DNA of 10,096 nucleotides from a virus. Lineage: Duplodnaviria; Heunggongvirae; Uroviricota; Caudoviricetes. The notes under the pieces were generated by a model that saw only the letters and a program-made list of their open reading frames with translations, had not been told where the DNA came from and did no database searches. The position numbers and the translations under genes were made by a program. The DNA lies in IMG/VR virus record IMGVR_UViG_2734482585_000006. The stretch is one strand, 5' to 3'. Positions 2,909 through 10,054 of this stretch are shown piece by piece. Position 1 is the stretch's first letter. Each line of letters opens with the position of its first letter.

Positions 2909-3289
2909 ATGACCGAGCGCATAGAATTTGTTTTACCTTACCCGCCGACGGTGAACACTTACTGGCGTCGTCGTGGCAGCACATATTTTGTATCAAAAGC
3001 CGGGGAGCGTTATCGCCGGGCAGTGGCGCTTATTGTTCGCCAGCAGCGGCTGAAATTAAGCCTGTCCGGAAGGTTGGCAATAAAAATTATTGCAGAACCA
3101 CCGGATAAGCGCCGCCGTGACCTGGACAATATTCTGAAAGCGCCGCTGGATGCGCTGACGCATGCGGGGTTGCTAATGGACGATGAGCAGTTTGATGAAA
3201 TCAATATCGTTCGTGCTCAGCCAGTATCTGGTGGACGTCTGGGGGTGAAGATTTATCCCATAATGCTTGAAGGGCAGGTCAAAAAATGA
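2909..3289 (+). CDS. rusA: Crossover junction endodeoxyribonuclease RusA (Holliday junction resolvase), copy 1
   Basis: 126-aa protein with RusA-family motifs (YPPTVNTYW, PDKRRRDLDN, GGRL); stop overlaps the Q start (ATGA at 3286-3289). Confidence 0.9.
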   Translation: MTERIEFVLPYPPTVNTYWRRRGSTYFVSKAGERYRRAVALIVRQQRLKLSLSGRLAIKIIAEPPDKRRRDLDNILKAPLDALTHAGLLMDDEQFDEINIVRAQPVSGGRLGVKIYPIMLEGQVKK

Positions 3290-3976
3290 AACTGGAAGAT
3301 TTACCGAAATACTACTCCCCAAAATCCCCCGGCCTGACTGATGCATCGGCCTCAACGTCGAAAGATGCGCTGAGTATCACTGATGTGATGGCCGCGCAGG
3401 GCATGACACAGAATCGGGCTGAGATGGGGGTTTCTGCGTTCCTTGGGAAAATGGGCATTAGTATGAATGACAGAGAGCGGGCAACAGAATTGCTGACAGA
3501 ATATGCACTCAGTCGGTGTGATCGCGTGGCGGCGTTAAGAAAACTCCCGGCAGAAATAAAACCGGCAGTGATGCGTATTATGGCTTCGTATGCGTTTGAA
3601 GATTATGCCCGTAGCGCGGCGAGCAAAAAACAGTGCNNNNNNNNNNNNNNNNNNNNNNNNNNNNNNNNNNNNNNNNNNNNNNNNNNNNNNNNNNNNNNNN
3701 NNNNNNNNNNNNNNNNNNNNNNNNNNNNNNNNNNNNNNNNNNNNNNNNNNNNNNNNNNNNNNNNNNNNNNNNNNNNNNNNNNNNNNNNNNNNNNNNNNNN
3801 NNNNNNNNNNNNNNNNNNNNNNNNNNNNNNNNNNNNNNNNNNNNNNNNNNNNNNNNNNNNNNNNNNNNNNNNNNNNNNNNNNNNNNNNNNNNNNNNNNNN
3901 NNNNNNNNNNNNNNNNNNNNNNNNNNNNNNNNNNNNNNNNNNNNNNNNNNNNNNNNNNNNNNNNNNNNNNNNNNNN
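3286..3976 (+). CDS. Late-gene antitermination protein Q, copy 1 (3' part N-masked; true stop unknown)
   Basis: The first 117 aa before the mask are about 95% identical to the full-length copy at 6622-7476. Sequence after the mask (3977 onward) matches the sequence just downstream of the copy-2 stop, so the stop is probably inside the mask. The mask is 340 nt where copy 2 has about 507 nt, so the two copies differ in length. Confidence 0.7.
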
Positions 3977-4012
3977 TGGGCGTTTTATGCCTGACGTTAG
4001 AAGAGTTTCTAC

Positions 4013-4037
4013 AACCCGCCGCCGAGCGGGTTTTTTA
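4013..4037 (+). terminator. tR'-like Rho-independent terminator downstream of Q copy 1
   Basis: cccgc (4015-4019) / gcggg (4026-4030) stem followed by tttttt (4031-4036); same sequence as the terminator after Q copy 2. Confidence 0.65.
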
Positions 4038-4156
4038 TGACTGAAATCGCGTCAGTACAGTAAACGCGCTGGTGGCGGTGAATACCTGTCTTTCAGCTTG
4101 CTGGCTTTTTCGACAAGAGTTATTGGTGTGTCACGTTAACCGGAAAAGGAAAAGAC

Positions 4157-4354
4157 ATGCTAAAACAGCAGGATATGACAGAAACCGCCAGAGTGGTGTT
4201 TAATGAATTAAGCGTTACCGAACCGGCGACAGTCGGGGAGATAGCGCAGAATACTTACCTTTCACGCGAACGCTGCCAGTTAATACTGACCCAGCTGGTT
4301 ATGGCGGGTCTGGCAGACTATCAGTTCGGTTGTTACAGACGCCTTCCGCAGTGA
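4157..4354 (+). CDS. Small winged-helix DNA-binding protein, PapI/FaeA-like (65 aa)
   Basis: AAGGA (4146-4150) 6 nt before the ATG. The segment ATVGEIAQNTYLSRERCQLILTQLVMAGL resembles the recognition-helix region of PapI/FaeA-family regulators (compare PapI [28 protein letters not shown], from memory). The stop lies inside a terminator hairpin. Confidence 0.5.
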   Translation: MLKQQDMTETARVVFNELSVTEPATVGEIAQNTYLSRERCQLILTQLVMAGLADYQFGCYRRLPQ

Positions 4355-4366
4355 AGGCTTTTTTAT
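4341..4366 (+). terminator. Rho-independent terminator after the small winged-helix gene
   Basis: Perfect 6-bp stem gccttc (4341-4346) / gaaggc (4353-4358) followed by ttttttat. Confidence 0.6.
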
Positions 4367-4381
4367 TTGTGGTAAATGGGC

Positions 4382-4412
4382 GGCTGGTGGGTGTTAGGGG
4401 CACCCACCAGCC
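4382..4412. repeat. Perfect 12-bp-stem hairpin / palindrome
   Basis: ggctggtgggtg (4382-4393), 7-nt loop, cacccaccagcc (4401-4412); no U-tract follows, so not an obvious terminator. Lies about 90 nt upstream of the methyltransferase gene. Confidence 0.5.
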
Positions 4413-4504
4413 ATCTGCTCATGCGTTGGGTTCACAAGCAAACCTCAGGCCCACTGCTTTGCGCAAAAGCAGAATGAGCCTATCAGAGACAGGCTTAATG
4501 ATCC

Positions 4505-5563
4505 ATGCTTAATACTGTAAAAATATCCAGTTGTGAGTTAATCAACGCCGACTGCCTGGAATTTATCCGGTCGTTACCCGAAAATTCTGTTGACCTGATA
4601 GTCACGGACCCGCCGTACTTTAAAGTGAAGCCTGAGGGCTGGGATAACCAGTGGAAGGGCGACGATGATTACCTGAAGTGGCTGGACCAGTGTCTGGCGC
4701 AGTTCTGGCGGGTGCTGAAACCTGCCGGAAGTCTTTACCTGTTCTGTGGTCATCGCCTGGCATCTGATATCGAAATCATGATGCGTGAACGCTTCAGTGT
4801 GCTGAACCATATTATCTGGGCGAAGCCGTCCGGACGCTGGAACGGATGCAACAAGGAAAGCCTGCGGGCGTATTTCCCCGCCACAGAGCGCATTCTGTTC
4901 GCGGAACATTATCAGGGGCCGTATCGTCCGAAAGATGCCGGGTATGCGGCGAAGGGCAGTGCACTGAAACAGCATGTGATGGCCCCGCTGATTTCTTACT
5001 TTCGTGATGCGCGAGCTGCCCTGGGGATAACGGCAAAACAGATTGCAGATGCCACAGGAAAGAAAAACATGGTGTCGCACTGGTTCAGTGCCGGTCAGTG
5101 GCAGTTGCCGAATGAAAGCGATTATCTGAAATTACAGGCGCTGTTTGCCCGGGTGGCAGAAGAGAAGCATCGGCGTGGTGAACTGGAAAAGCTCCACCAC
5201 CAGCTGGTGGATACGTATACCTCACTGAACCGGCAGTATGCGGAGCTGCTGAGTGAATATAAACATCTGCGGCGGTATTTTGGCGTGACGGTGCAGGTGC
5301 CGTATACCGATGTGTGGACGCATAAACCGGTGCAGTTCTATCCCGGGAAACATCCGTGCGAAAAACCGGCAGAAATGCTGCAGCAGATAATCAGCGCTAG
5401 CAGTCGTCCGGGTGACCTGATTGCAGATTTTTTCATGGGGTTGGGTTCGACAGTGAAAGCGGCACTGGCGCTCGGGCGTCGTGCAATTGGCGTTGAGCTG
5501 GAGACTGAACGTTTTGAGCAGACGGTTCGGGAAGTACAGGATTTAGTCAGCCAGAACGGATGA
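4505..5563 (+). CDS. Orphan DNA N6-adenine methyltransferase (beta-class, motif IV before motif I)
   Basis: 352-aa ORF with catalytic DPPY early (LIVTDPPYF) and the AdoMet-binding FxGxG near the C-terminus (DFFMGLGST); this order defines beta-class amino-MTases. No restriction endonuclease partner is visible. Weak RBS. Confidence 0.85.
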   Translation: MLNTVKISSCELINADCLEFIRSLPENSVDLIVTDPPYFKVKPEGWDNQWKGDDDYLKWLDQCLAQFWRVLKPAGSLYLFCGHRLASDIEIMMRERFSVLNHIIWAKPSGRWNGCNKESLRAYFPATERILFAEHYQGPYRPKDAGYAAKGSALKQHVMAPLISYFRDARAALGITAKQIADATGKKNMVSHWFSAGQWQLPNESDYLKLQALFARVAEEKHRRGELEKLHHQLVDTYTSLNRQYAELLSEYKHLRRYFGVTVQVPYTDVWTHKPVQFYPGKHPCEKPAEMLQQIISASSRPGDLIADFFMGLGSTVKAALALGRRAIGVELETERFEQTVREVQDLVSQNG

Positions 5564-5603
5564 TATTGAAGAATTAATTACGCGTCGTTATTATGCGGCT
5601 CCC

Positions 5604-5679
5604 GGCCCTTTAGCTCAGTGGTGAGAGCGAGCGACTCATAATCGCCAGGTCGCTGGTTCAAATCCAGCAAGGGCCACCA
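5604..5679 (+). tRNA. tRNA with CAU anticodon (ileZ-like tRNA-Ile2 or tRNA-Met), copy 1
   Basis: Hand-folded cloverleaf: acceptor ggccctt/aagggcc, D-arm gctc/gagc, anticodon loop cuCAUaa, T-loop ttcaaat, discriminator A, CCA encoded. The phage context suggests ileZ as in Stx phages. Confidence 0.85.
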
Positions 5680-5724: not shown

Positions 5725-6008
5725 NNNNNNNNNNNNNNNNNNNNNNNNNNNNNNNNNNNNNNNNNNNNNNNNNNNNNNNNNNNNNNNNNNNNNNNNNNNN
5801 NNNNNNNNNNNNNNNNNNNNNNNNNNNNNNNNNNNNNNNNNNNNNNNNNNNNNNNNNNNNNNNNNNNNNNNNNNNNNNNNNNNNNNNNNNNNNNNNNNNN
5901 NNNNNNNNNNNNNNNNNNNNNNNNNNNNNNNNNNNNNNNNNNNNNNNNNNNNNNNNNNNNNNNNNNNNNNNNNNNNNNNNNNNNNNNNNNNNNNTGAACA
6001 ACCAGACA

Positions 6009-6251
6009 ATGACTTTTACCCCTGAACAATTGCGTAAACACGCGCAGGAAATGCTGCGTCATGCTGAACAACTCGAAAAAACGGGCATAACAAAAGACGC
6101 TATCCGTAAAGATATGGTACCCGCGCTTCGGGAACTGATGCAGGCGAAGCATCGCGCACAGAAAGCAGTAGATGAGCTGGTGGACTGTGTGGCAGAGCTG
6201 GAAACCAGAGTCGGAAAGTTTGAAAAACTGGTGCAGGAGGTGCTGCGCTGA
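6009..6251 (+). CDS. Hypothetical small helical protein (80 aa)
   Basis: ORF MTFTPEQLRKHAQEMLRHAEQLEK...; stop TGA 6249-6251 overlaps the rusA copy-2 ATG by one base (TGATG). No SD, and the frame is open upstream into the N mask. N-terminus is paralogous to ORF 481-825. Confidence 0.5.
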   Translation: MTFTPEQLRKHAQEMLRHAEQLEKTGITKDAIRKDMVPALRELMQAKHRAQKAVDELVDCVAELETRVGKFEKLVQEVLR

Positions 6252-6625
6252 TGCGCCATGAGTTTATTTTACCTTATCCGCCGACGGTGAATACTTACTG
6301 GCGACGTCGTGACAACACATATTTTGTATCAAAAGCCGGTGAGCGTTATCGCCGGGATGTGGCGCTTATTGTCCGTCAGCAGCGACTGAAATTAAGCCTG
6401 TCCGGAAGACTGGCGATAAAGATTATTGCAGAGCCACCGGATAAGCGCCGTCGTGACCTGGACAATATCCTGAAAGCACCACTGGATGCACTGACACATG
6501 CGGGAGTGTTAATGGACGATGAGCAGTTTGATGAAATCAATATCGTTCGTGGTCAGCCAGTATCTGGTGGACGTCTGGGGGTGAAGATTTACCCCATAAT
6601 GCATGAAGAGCAGGTCAAAAAATGA
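6251..6625 (+). CDS. rusA: Crossover junction endodeoxyribonuclease RusA, copy 2
   Basis: 124-aa protein about 93% identical to copy 1 with the same RusA motifs; ATGA overlap with Q copy 2 at 6622-6625. Confidence 0.9.
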   Translation: MRHEFILPYPPTVNTYWRRRDNTYFVSKAGERYRRDVALIVRQQRLKLSLSGRLAIKIIAEPPDKRRRDLDNILKAPLDALTHAGVLMDDEQFDEINIVRGQPVSGGRLGVKIYPIMHEEQVKK

Positions 6626-7476
6626 AACTGGAAGATTTACCGAAATACTACTCCCCAAAATCCCCTTGCCTGACCGATGCATCGGCCTCAACGTCAAAAG
6701 ATGCGCTGAGTATCACTGATGTGATGGCCGCGCAGGGCATGACACAGAATCGGGCTGAGATGGGGTTTTCTGCGTTCCTGGGGAAAATGGGCATCAGTAT
6801 GAATGACAGGGCGCGGGCAACAGAATTACTGGCAGATTATGCACTCAGTCGGTGCGATCGTGTGGCGGCGTTGAGAAAACTTCCGGCAGAAATAAAACCG
6901 GTAGTGATGCGCATTATGGCTTCGTACGCTTTTGAGGATTATGCCCGCAGCGCAGCGAGTAAAAAGCAGTGCCCTTGTTGCTATGGGGAAAAATTTATTG
7001 AAAGCGTAGTTTTTACAAACAAGGTCCAGTATCCGGATGGTAAGCCGCCGGTATGGGCAAAGTGTACGAAAGGTGTGTATCCGTCTTACTGGGAAGAATG
7101 GAAAAAAGTCAGGGAGGTGGTAAAAGTTGCCTGTCCGGAGTGTGGCGGAAAGGGTGAGGTTTCCACCGCCTGTAAGGATTGCCGTGGGCGTGGTGTCGCC
7201 ATTCATCGTGAAGAGTCGGTAAAACGTGGTATGCCTGTTATCAGAGACTGCCAGCGTTGTGGTGGTCGTGGCTATGAAAGACTACCATCAACGGAGGCAT
7301 TTAATGCTATATGCGAGGTGACAAACCAGATAACACGCGCGTCATGGGAAAAAACAGTTAAGAAATTCTATGATGCGCTGGTGACTCGGTTTGATATTGA
7401 AGAAGCATGGGCTGAGCGGCAGTTAAAAAAGGTAACTAGGTTGATTTTTCCGGAATCTGTGGTAAATTCGTCATAA
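6622..7476 (+). CDS. Late-gene antitermination protein Q, copy 2 (full length, 284 aa)
   Basis: Position immediately after rusA and before a promoter-proximal terminator and tRNAs is the canonical Q slot in lambdoid phages. Carries CPCC plus three CxxCxGxG motifs (CPECGGKG, CKDCRGRG, CQRCGGRG). Family assignment is by position and recollection, not a search. Confidence 0.75.
   Translation: MKLEDLPKYYSPKSPCLTDASASTSKDALSITDVMAAQGMTQNRAEMGFSAFLGKMGISMNDRARATELLADYALSRCDRVAALRKLPAEIKPVVMRIMASYAFEDYARSAASKKQCPCCYGEKFIESVVFTNKVQYPDGKPPVWAKCTKGVYPSYWEEWKKVREVVKVACPECGGKGEVSTACKDCRGRGVAIHREESVKRGMPVIRDCQRCGGRGYERLPSTEAFNAICEVTNQITRASWEKTVKKFYDALVTRFDIEEAWAERQLKKVTRLIFPESVVNSS
7441..7468 (+). promoter_or_regulatory. 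Candidate late promoter (pR'-like) at the 3' end of Q
   Basis: TTGATT (7441-7446), 16-nt spacer, TAAATT (7463-7468); a start near 7475 would give a roughly 60-nt transcript ending at the terminator at 7516-7540, analogous to lambda 6S RNA and the qut region. Match by eye only. Confidence 0.3.
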
Positions 7477-7515
7477 CTATGGGCGTTTTATGCCTGACGT
7501 TAGAAGAGTTTCTAC

Positions 7516-7540
7516 AACCCGCCGCCGAGCGGGTTTTTTA
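7516..7540 (+). terminator. tR'-like Rho-independent terminator downstream of Q copy 2
   Basis: cccgc (7518-7522) / gcggg (7529-7533) stem followed by tttttt (7534-7539). Confidence 0.65.
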
Positions 7541-7578
7541 TTGCGGAATTAATTACGGACCGTTATTATTCTGCTCCC

Positions 7579-8476: not shown

Positions 8477-8789
8477 NNNNNNNNNNNNNNNNNNNNNNNN
8501 NNNNNNNNNNNNNNNNNNNNNNNNNNNNNNNNNNNNNNNNNNNNNNNNNNNNNNNNNNNNNNNNNNNNNNNNNNNNNNNNNNNNNNNNNNNNNNNNNNNN
8601 NNNNNNNNNNNNNNNNNNNNNNNNNNNNNNNNNNNNNNNNNNNNNNNNNNNNNNNNNNNNNNNNNNNNNNNNNNNNNNNNNNNNNNNNNNNNNNNNNNNN
8701 NNNNNNNNNNNNNNNNNNNNNNNNNNNNNNNNNNNNNNNNNNNNNNCTGTTGTCTGGTTTGCGGGGAGTTTGTTAAAAGAAACTGGCAT
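8477..8789 (-). CDS. Minus-strand cargo gene, N-terminus only (MPVSFNKLPANQTT...); remainder N-masked
   Basis: ATG at 8789-8787 on the minus strand with AGGGGG 7 nt upstream; the ORF runs into the mask, so its length and end are unknown. The track extension to 8379 depends on the frame through the N run and is not trusted. Confidence 0.3.
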
Positions 8790-8996: not shown

Positions 8997-9620
8997 CTAT
9001 ATTTTCAGATGTGATGAAAGCCTGTCAGCAGGCAGGGCGTATCGGAAATGACCCAGTAGAGAAAACGTTGNNNNNNNNNNNNNNNNNNNNNNNNNNNNNN
9101 NNNNNNNNNNNNNNNNNNNNNNNNNNNNNNNNNNNNNNNNNNNNNNNNNNNNNNNNNNNNNNNNNNNNNNNNNNNNNNNNNNNNNNNNNNNNNNNNNNNN
9201 NNNNNNNNNNNNNNNNNNNNNNNNNNNNNNNNNNNNNNNNNNNNNNNNNNNNNNNNNNNNNNNNNNNNNNNNNNNNNNNNNNNNNNNNNNNNNNNNNNNN
9301 NNNNNNNNNNNNNNNNNNNNTTGCAGAGTGCAACGGTTATTAAAGCATTCATTCAATACGTTATCTGTATTTGTAGGGCATTCCTGGCTATTTTTGATTG
9401 AATTCCAGAATGTTTTATTGAATGGTACTACGTTGTAAATGGTTACAGGTAGCACTTTGTTATTGAGCATGATGCCTGTGTGAGTCAGTGTAAATATACT
9501 TTCAGGAGGTAAGAAAGCATCCGATTGATACCAGATTATTAATTTTATTTTACTCCATATGACTGAAAAAGATATTCCGCATGATGGCTGGATAACTGTA
9601 TCAATCACAATCCACTTCAT
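8997..9620 (-). CDS. Minus-strand AT-rich cargo gene (first 100 aa visible: [34 protein letters not shown]...), middle N-masked, end uncertain
   Basis: ATG at 9620 (minus) with AAGGA at 6-nt spacing; 100 codons are open before the mask. The mask is 250 nt (not a multiple of 3), so the stop at 8997 is not established. No family recognised. Confidence 0.45.
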
Positions 9621-9880
9621 TTAGTTTCCTTGTTTATGCCTTGCTGGTGATGTTCTGAAAAGTATAAATGATATTTTTGAATGTAAACCATAGAGCAGAA
9701 TTATTTTTCTGATGTTGTTTATTGTTTATTTAAATGCAGGGTGGTTTATATCTCGTCTTGTAGTTTATCCATGCATATCTGCTTGATAATCAGGTTTTTA
9801 TTTAAGGTATGGTTTTGTGTTTTTTCTGTATTACATGTCAGGTATTTTAAAGAATTATTTTTCAGATGGTGGAAAGAACC

Positions 9881-10054
9881 ATGGCATTTAAACACTATGA
9901 TGTTGTCAGGGCGGCGCCGCCGTCAGATCTTGCGGAAAAGCTGACACATAAACTGAAAGAGGGCTGGCAGCCGTTTGGTAGTCCGGTGGCCATAACCCCT
10001 TATACCCTGAGGTGTACTGGCAATAGCGGACACTACCATTTGTTCTTTTTTTAA
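9881..10054 (+). CDS. Small conserved-looking phage protein (57 aa, MAFKHYDVVRAAPPSDLAEKLTHKLKEGWQPFGSPVAITPYTLRCTGNSGHYHLFFF)
   Basis: ATG 9881 has a purine-rich stretch (GGTGGAAAG) just upstream; the track start 9866 has none. Diverges from the minus-strand cargo gene across an AT-rich intergenic region. The last 47 nt of the CDS and the 42 nt after it form the right arm of the terminal inverted repeat. Confidence 0.5.
   Translation: MAFKHYDVVRAAPPSDLAEKLTHKLKEGWQPFGSPVAITPYTLRCTGNSGHYHLFFF

Follow-up and report, generated by a model that had tools for sequence, protein, structure and literature searches.

A proposed late-operon cassette of a predicted winged-helix protein, a structured leader and an M.EcoGII-type methyltransferase in a lambdoid prophage

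The 10,096-nucleotide viral sequence IMGVR_UViG_2734482585_000006 (IMG/VR; the whole analyzed stretch is referred to here as the window) is the late-regulatory region of a lambdoid prophage. On its + strand, a gene for a small, predicted winged-helix protein (ORF65, 4157..4354) is followed by a structured leader (4368..4504) and by the gene for an N6-adenine DNA methyltransferase (4505..5563). We propose, with a probability of about 0.6, that these parts form a late-operon cassette downstream of Q, pR' and tR', in which terminators and the leader gate the methyltransferase while the winged-helix protein likely acts as a regulator. ORF65 and the methyltransferase constitute a long-lived unit in which neither strictly requires the other, and the leader is a conserved structured RNA found only before these methyltransferases. 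The methyltransferase is already known as an enzyme type; no description of the leader or of its winged-helix partner was found in the literature or in the family libraries searched. The original prediction had placed the 65-residue open reading frame (ORF), a hairpin at 4382–4412 and the methyltransferase gene between Q and the tRNAs, and all three lie exactly at those coordinates: a Q-like ORF, partly N-masked, ends at 4044 upstream of ORF65, and a tRNA with a CAT anticodon follows at 5604–5679.

The methyltransferase (352 aa) matches Pfam PF01555 (N6_N4_Mtase) at 7.9e-42 and carries DPPY at residues 35–38 (nt 4607–4618), ahead of FMGLG at residues 310–314 (nt 5432–5446), which is the beta-class motif order, as originally assigned. 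It shares 324 of 349 residues (~93%) with M.EcoGII over the full length, including the recognition domain; the reference sequence was taken from the supplement of PMC11551740 by machine reading and contains a few reading errors, so the true identity is probably slightly higher. The best phage match is 1720a-02, a phage named as the carrier of an enzyme very similar to M.EcoGII (PMC5778455). Sequence similarity thus assigns the enzyme to the non-specific M.EcoGI/M.EcoGII family, and it is neither site-specific nor the standard Dam-like enzyme that had been considered as an alternative. M.EcoGII itself is a 349-aa beta-class prophage enzyme that methylates adenine non-specifically, whatever the sequence context (Murray et al. 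2018, PMC5778455). It is unexpressed in its native lysogen, constitutive clones are slow-growing and unstable, and its proposed role is to defeat host restriction (PMC5778455). It has been grouped with Mu Mom as lysogen-silent and toxic (PMC12707154), and a methylome paper on O111 Shiga toxin-producing Escherichia coli gives the prophage orphans M.EcoGI and M.EcoGII as ‘nonspecific’.

Non-specific, lysogen-silent and toxic behavior would carry over to the window enzyme from M.EcoGII by homology. An anti-restriction role, one of the two functions first suggested for this locus, agrees with the published work on this near-identical enzyme (PMC5778455). Since the enzyme family is non-specific, there is no target motif to look for in the region. 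The description of the methyltransferase as an orphan on a lambdoid prophage also stands, as no restriction enzyme was recognized among the neighbors tested, including a DUF968/HNH ORF without a PADLOC match. A literature search for induction-dependent expression of this enzyme returned nothing relevant. By DNA similarity, the methyltransferase gene was detected in 2021 of 5426 complete E. coli genomes and ORF65 in 2269.

A structured leader precedes the methyltransferase

The methyltransferase mRNA begins with a structured 5' leader of ~140 nt (4368..4504, + strand), which contains an invariant UGUGG.AAAUGGGCG motif and lacks a Shine-Dalgarno sequence. Five elements are proposed for it: helix Pa (4377–4381/4449–4453), P1 (4382–4412), P2 (4414–4419/4437–4442), P3 (4454–4460/4466–4472) and GAGCCUAUCAGAG. 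The four helices were derived from RNAalifold and manual inspection. In a MAFFT alignment of 55 distinct leaders, variable helices alternate with invariant single-stranded blocks, namely UGUGG.AAAUGGGCG, UCACAAGC.AACC, GGCCCA, GAGCCUA.CA and UGAUC.AUG. P1 is a perfect 12-bp inverted repeat (4382–4393/4401–4412) closed by a 7-nt loop. This hairpin had been correctly recognized in the original prediction, which missed the larger conserved leader of which it is one helix.

Base pairing in the leader is maintained despite sequence change. In the MAFFT alignment, 92.4% of cells pair, compared with 33–46% when the partners are slid, and 13 of 29 pairs show changes on both sides, compared with 6.3 ± 1.5 in shuffled alignments (0 of 500 shuffles reached 13). 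On a covariance-model alignment the values rise to 94.6% of cells paired and 17 pairs changed on both sides; such an alignment leans towards structure by construction, and the MAFFT figures are the fairer test. Within P1 alone, 9 of 12 pairs have compensatory changes across species. G-U pairs occur on the + strand only, which points to an RNA on the sense strand. The leader has a median pairwise identity of 0.82, and the adjoining gene has 0.51 at third and 0.87 at first and second codon positions; the leader thus changes much more slowly than the third codon positions.

The leader is also specific to its position. Its covariance model found matches in 57 of 83 sources, one per locus, always on the + strand and immediately before the methyltransferase. 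Scanning viral contigs for the exact pattern recovered 119 leader loci, and the methyltransferase follows directly in all 117 that have enough downstream sequence. The leader is conserved in loci without ORF65 as well. No family in Rfam 15 matches it, the only hit being a sub-threshold match to P26 on the opposite strand (24.2 bits against a cut-off of 36; E = 0.026), and it is therefore not AgvB or AsxR. These two RNAs and Pas, tried as known prophage small RNAs that might account for the leader, lie elsewhere and are already in Rfam.

Several further features were tried and left out of the leader model. A hairpin termed P4 (GAGC/GCUU) forms in most sequences with a varying register. A helix that would sequester UGAUC and the AUG fails because, in ~40% of sequences, an uncompensated U-to-C change disrupts its AUCA/UGAU pairing. 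Translation of a leader ORF coupled to the methyltransferase start through ATGA was rejected, as about half of the loci have no start codon in frame. In the window, a 60-aa ORF (4330–4512) spans the whole leader and ends just past the methyltransferase ATG; the ATGA overlap is found in most relatives and the frame is often open. At the far end of the phylogenetic range, Photorhabdus and Xenorhabdus loci (L134–L161) have a shorter spacer that keeps the GGUGAAAUGG motif and a P1-like hairpin, without P2 and P3. In some of these loci the P1-like hairpin is followed by a U-run, as in a terminator.

ORF65 and its linkage to the methyltransferase

ORF65 (4157..4354, + strand, 65 aa) starts with an ATG that AAGGA precedes by 6 nt. 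Its median ratio of nonsynonymous to synonymous substitution rates (dN/dS) is 0.10 over 125 pairs with dS > 0.15, indicating strong purifying selection, and we conclude that it is a real gene. The family is small: a phmmer search of 1.84 billion cluster representatives found 61 proteins, all from Enterobacterales or phage-like sources. ORF65 belongs to PHROG_331, a family of unknown function in PHROGs, and has no match in NCBIfam or PADLOC.

A canonical winged-helix fold is confidently predicted for ORF65. The AlphaFold2 model, calculated from an alignment that includes the divergent Stx2c-type subfamily (Stx, Shiga toxin), has a predicted local distance difference test score (pLDDT) of 92 and a predicted template modeling score of 0.78; a first model from a shallow alignment (all sequences >80% identical; pLDDT 62) was discarded. 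The predicted topology comprises a helix at residues 9–16, a short strand, helices at 26–33 and 37–49, and a beta-hairpin wing at 53–62. Helix 3 (CQLILTQL) and the N-terminus (MLKQQDMT) are nearly invariant across the ORF65 subfamilies, and the remainder diverges. Six mosaic proteins (P0171–P0176) combine a type-1 N-terminal part with a type-2 C-terminal wing, which points to recombination inside the invariant segment that encodes helix 3.

Comparison with known families yielded only generic resemblance. The best Foldseek matches of the model are winged-helix domains of O-methyltransferases, OhrR, IclR and the RNA-binding SelB, none at E ≤ 0.001. Against Pfam TrmB, ORF65 scores 18.0 bits, below the gathering cut-off of 25.6, with a best E of 3.3e-4 among 33 family members; its RefSeq name, ‘TrmB family’, reflects the generic winged helix only. 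The same applies to the likeness to PapI/FaeA-type regulators noted originally, which comes down to a helix-3 and ‘AGL’ pattern common to winged helices. Pfam FaeA (PF04703) has no match to the window ORF65 at a limit of E = 1, and FaeA is absent from the 25 of 27 families listed for 33 ORF65 family members at a limit of E = 10. An hhalign comparison with verified PapI (2HTJ) gave a probability of 22.5% and 18% identity over 44 columns. The ORF65 family profile did not find PapI among Protein Data Bank (PDB) sequences at E ≤ 10, and PapI is absent from the Foldseek match lists for ORF65. Profile and structure searches thus bear out the winged-helix part of the original assignment and remove membership of the PapI/FaeA family.

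To survey the locus at species level, a degenerate-pattern scan with one genome per species was used, giving 80 loci; their methyltransferases share between 96% and 61% identity with that of the window. In 54 of these loci, the methyltransferase is immediately preceded by an ORF65-family gene, at a gap of 76–154 nt. Among the 79 loci having upstream sequence, 31 have both ORF65 and the leader, 23 have ORF65 without the leader (the short variant), 22 have the leader without ORF65 and 3 have neither. The ORF65–methyltransferase pair ranges from Escherichia to Xenorhabdus, through Mixta, Klebsiella, Enterobacter, Citrobacter, Kluyvera, Buttiauxella, Rosenbergiella and Photorhabdus. In viral sequences, ORF65 is directly upstream in 108 of 116 leader-bearing loci, and the methyltransferase is downstream in 73 of the 74 ORF65 loci with enough sequence. 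The link between the two genes assumed in the original prediction is therefore tight across divergent phages. One locus (L006), with an identical methyltransferase and no ORF65, was considered as a natural variant and set aside: in this public viral contig (2900–2910) the junction falls at an N inside P1 and joins the other end of the window (matching 9866–9920), so that it is probably an assembly join.

Proposed control of the methyltransferase and alternative explanations

Candidate control elements flank both genes of the cassette. The cassette starts just after a terminator at 4013..4038 (+ strand), a 7-bp GC-rich stem followed by a T-run, which is likely the tR' that ends the short pR' transcript of the upstream Q gene; the same segment recurs after the second Q copy at 7513–7545. 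Upstream of ORF65, at 4097..4134 on the + strand, lies a conserved element that reads CTTGCTG, 17 nt, TATTGG..TGTGTCAC. Its consensus, CTTGCTG-N17-TA..TG..TGT.TGTCA, is near-invariant from Escherichia to Xenorhabdus and Photorhabdus in more than 50 loci (including L087–L161) and is preceded by a terminator in all lineages. This element may be a promoter, an operator or both. A CAGAG(TTA) motif found before ORF65 and near the methyltransferase start was also tried as an operator and is kept as a lead only, with five bases common to all lineages and no conserved dyad.

Between the two genes, a hairpin of GCCTTC/GAAGGC (P0; 4341–4358) followed by TTTTTTATTT makes up a terminator-like structure at 4341..4367 on the + strand. 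The ORF65 stop codon (4352–4354) sits in the loop and 3' arm of P0, and a stop codon in or near the loop of a local hairpin is found in 43 of 50 ORF65-bearing loci, in three subfamilies with different stem sequences. This arrangement suggests that ORF65 translation and folding of the P0 terminator are coupled; with the stop codon inside P0, a ribosome finishing ORF65 would melt the hairpin. The original prediction had described this hairpin as the ORF's own terminator. It is indeed terminator-like, but a hairpin at the same position persists in many loci without ORF65, so it does not simply belong to that gene. At the far end of the leader, the methyltransferase start lacks a Shine-Dalgarno sequence and is preceded by a nearly invariant UGAUC (4499..4503, + strand; positions −6 to −2 of the AUG). 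UGAUC is complementary to GAUCA in the 3' end of 16S rRNA, and it may serve as a non-canonical ribosome contact.

Given these features, we hypothesize the following course of events. The methyltransferase would be made late in lytic growth, where homology and the published work suggest that it shields progeny DNA from host restriction enzymes; because it is toxic, it would have to stay off in the lysogen. There, transcription from pR', or from any promoter of ORF65, would stop at tR' or P0 before reaching the methyltransferase. After induction, terminator-resistant RNA polymerase, presumably modified by Q, would read through both terminators, and it alone should get to the methyltransferase efficiently. 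The leader probably sets how well an mRNA without a Shine-Dalgarno sequence is translated or how stable it is, and in this way probably helps to hold the toxic enzyme off until the lytic phase. ORF65 is likely, judging from its modeled fold, a cassette-specific nucleic-acid-binding regulator, a role in keeping with the invariance of both its recognition helix and the element that precedes its gene. It most likely binds that element and so tunes expression of the cassette, and possibly it also binds DNA or RNA near the methyltransferase start. More tentatively, the leader could represent a new class of cis-regulatory RNA for non-specific adenine methyltransferases, with ORF65 as its trans-acting partner, contacting the leader or neighboring DNA, in an as yet undescribed two-part lock that would silence a genome-wide methylator of DNA and RNA in lysogens and release it only late in the lytic phase; we regard this stronger version as doubtful.

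A number of observations weigh against the gated cassette with ORF65 as its regulator. No ORF65 is detectable in 26 of the 80 species-level loci, 22 of which retain the leader; absent from about a third of these loci, ORF65 is dispensable for keeping the methyltransferase gene. Conversely, ORF65 outnumbers the methyltransferase in complete E. coli genomes, with 4242 against 3554 places, and can thus also persist alone. The linkage counts are inflated by common descent among many of the sequences. The element at 4097–4134 is not a canonical sigma-70 promoter, as its −10 hexamer lacks the T at position 6 and a promoter scan did not call it; ORF65 may for this reason be one more late gene. No operator could be defined, and the CAGAG motif found at both places is too short for significance. 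In the leader, helix Pa is invariant and thus beyond the reach of a covariation test; it also competes with an extension of P3, with which it overlaps by two bases and which has one compensatory case.

Several of these points would also be expected if ORF65 were an independent gene that merely travels with the methyltransferase and regulates some other phage or host gene, leaving control of the methyltransferase to the leader and terminators alone. The 22 loci that keep leader and methyltransferase without ORF65, and the ~690 additional ORF65 places in E. coli genomes, are consistent with this, as are the terminator-like hairpin between the two genes and the location 3' of pR', a known hotspot of stacked insertions (PMC4104026). 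However, pairing, gene order and short spacing are kept in Xenorhabdus and Photorhabdus, where identity has fallen to ~45–50% for ORF65 and ~64% for the methyltransferase. ORF65 homologues are almost never found elsewhere, as the near-complete association in viral loci illustrates, and the family is tiny and confined to these phages. We therefore consider an independent ORF65 possible, though on the unlikely side.

ORF65 might instead act on the enzyme itself, serving as an inhibitor or antitoxin, or on its product, by reading or shielding DNA rich in N6-methyladenine (m6A), for example against methylation-dependent nucleases. A small DNA-binding gene placed before a toxic gene resembles a toxin–antitoxin layout, the N-terminal MLKQQDMT is conserved in all ORF65 subfamilies, M.EcoGII is toxic (PMC5778455), and some prokaryotic winged helices sense m6A, for example in DpnI (PMC11037411). 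Against such a function, the ~150-nt structured spacer with its terminator is unlike toxin–antitoxin operons, the methyltransferase is stably kept without ORF65 in the 22 loci mentioned above, ORF65 matches nothing in PADLOC or NCBIfam, and no DpnI-type domain is among the top structural matches. On balance, we judge an action on the enzyme or its product to be improbable.

Still less likely, and very improbable in our estimate, is that the hairpin region acts as DNA, whether as a palindromic operator for the winged-helix protein or as a recombination signal. P1 is a perfect 12-bp palindrome whose arms in E. coli contain one Chi site (GCTGGTGG) and one inverted Chi site, and the window has 12 Chi sites where 0.37 are expected from shuffles. 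Yet the stem sequence varies freely between species while pairing is kept, so that no recognition sequence is conserved, and Chi is lost in most versions outside E. coli; Chi was rejected as the reason for the hairpin on these grounds. Moreover, the + strand G-U wobbles would be C-A mismatches on the other strand, and the hairpin is one part of a multi-helix structure that contains other covarying helices as well.

The heritable epigenetic on/off switch first proposed, in which a PapI/FaeA-type ORF65 would respond to adenine methylation by its neighbor, can be given hardly any credence and is already largely refuted: ORF65 and PapI are both small winged helices that align in register from helix 1 to helix 3, but the enzyme family is non-specific and lysogen-silent, the segment 3977–4520 has a single GATC, located within the UGAUC before the methyltransferase AUG, and the setting is a lambdoid late region between Q and the tRNAs with no fimbrial operon or Lrp context.

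The late region of the window and comparison with known systems

The window contains two RusA–Q modules in tandem, at 2909–4044 and 6251–7476, which looks like tandem or recombinant prophages or a duplication. The second Q ORF (6622–7476) is an unmasked duplicate of the first and matches PF03589 (Antiterm) at 7e-55. Four stretches are masked by N (3637–3976, 5725–5994, 8477–8746 and 9071–9320); the first Q gene loses most of its 3' half to the first of these, and the sequence after the first tRNA lies under the second. A promoter/terminator segment is common to both Q copies (3977–4038 and 7479–7545), the cassette following the first module and tRNAs directly following the second. In the 3' end of the second Q, a lambda-like late promoter (TTGATT-17-TAAATT) is located at 7441–7469, with an intrinsic terminator ~70 nt downstream. 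Together (7441–7545) they would yield a short transcript like the pR' transcript known from Stx phages and analogous to their StxS small RNA.

Similarity to other phages begins at 4041. The 1.66-kb segment 4040–5700 shares 94–95% identity with many Stx2-converting phages and 87.6% with phiP27; the gene order in these phages is hypothetical protein, DNA methylase, tRNAs and stx2. Among 5426 complete E. coli genomes, 2007 carry at least 80% of this segment. A promoter-like site (TTGAAG, 17 nt, TATTAT) and the CAT-anticodon tRNA mark the downstream boundary of the cassette (5566..5679, + strand); the site (5566–5594) is the only canonical sigma-70-like one in the region and lies just before the tRNA (5604–5679). 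ARAGORN calls this tRNA as Met, but related Stx phage records give it as ileZ (tRNA-Ile).

Eight of the Chi sites in the 10-kb window are on the + strand. Their positions include 4068–4075, 4383–4390 (+), 4404–4411 (−), 5197–5204 (−) and 5203–5210 (+), the last two forming a back-to-back pair inside the methyltransferase gene, at the codons of a conserved HHQLV motif. A Chi site in the + orientation would stop RecBCD coming from the late-gene (cos) side.

M.EcoGII is a widely used laboratory tool for footprinting chromatin and RNA. How a toxic and indiscriminate enzyme of this kind is silenced in the lysogen was explicitly left open in its description (PMC5778455). Three candidate control elements accompany the gene across Enterobacterales: a terminator with the stop codon of the upstream gene inside it, a structured leader without a Shine-Dalgarno sequence or an Rfam match, and a dedicated winged-helix protein. 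The partner and the leader make the question of M.EcoGII silencing directly testable. In many Stx2 phages the Shiga toxin genes come directly after the cassette, whose regulation may bear on late-operon read-through into stx and on the passage of phages across restriction barriers.

Among known systems, PapI/FaeA with Dam and Lrp likewise combine a small winged-helix protein with adenine methylation; in the cassette, by contrast, ORF65 is not similar to PapI/FaeA at the family level, paired GATC/Lrp sites are missing, the surroundings are not fimbrial, and the enzyme is non-specific rather than Dam. The C proteins of restriction–modification systems offer another parallel, in that the gene for a small DNA-binding and likely autoregulated regulator lies beside a methyltransferase gene. 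C proteins form Xre-type helix-turn-helix dimers, which bind C-boxes and control when the restriction gene is expressed. In contrast, ORF65 is predicted to be a winged helix, the cassette has no restriction gene, and no C-box-like repeat was found. Morons located after lambdoid pR'/tR', such as stx or AgvB/AsxR, share with the cassette the insertion zone after Q and its terminator, flanking hairpins of their own and, presumably, co-transcription with the late genes when Q acts. The cargo of the cassette, in contrast, modifies DNA and is preceded by its own dedicated structured leader.

The closest known enzymes are M.EcoGII and M.EcoGI from prophages of E. coli O104:H4 C227-11 (PMC5778455), with ~93% identity to M.EcoGII, the same beta-class order, a similar length (352 versus 349 aa) and the same orphan status on a prophage. 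The published account (PMC5778455) mentions no upstream gene, and no description of the leader was found in the literature searched. For the cassette as a whole, the com–mom operon of phage Mu offers a parallel. In Mu, a small gene and a structured leader lie ahead of mom, which is expressed in the late phase only; Com is a zinc-finger RNA-binding translational activator, and Mom is not a methyltransferase. In both systems, a temperate phage encodes a DNA-modifying enzyme that is toxic and stays silent in lysogens (PMC12707154), properties that the window enzyme would share by homology. They differ in that ORF65 is a predicted winged helix without a zinc-binding motif, that the leader of the cassette often occurs without ORF65, and that binding of ORF65 to the leader is putative. 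As ORF65 has no zinc finger and no covariation-supported leader helix occludes the methyltransferase AUG, the cassette is not a member of the com–mom system. By analogy of function, Mu com–mom would be its nearest counterpart.

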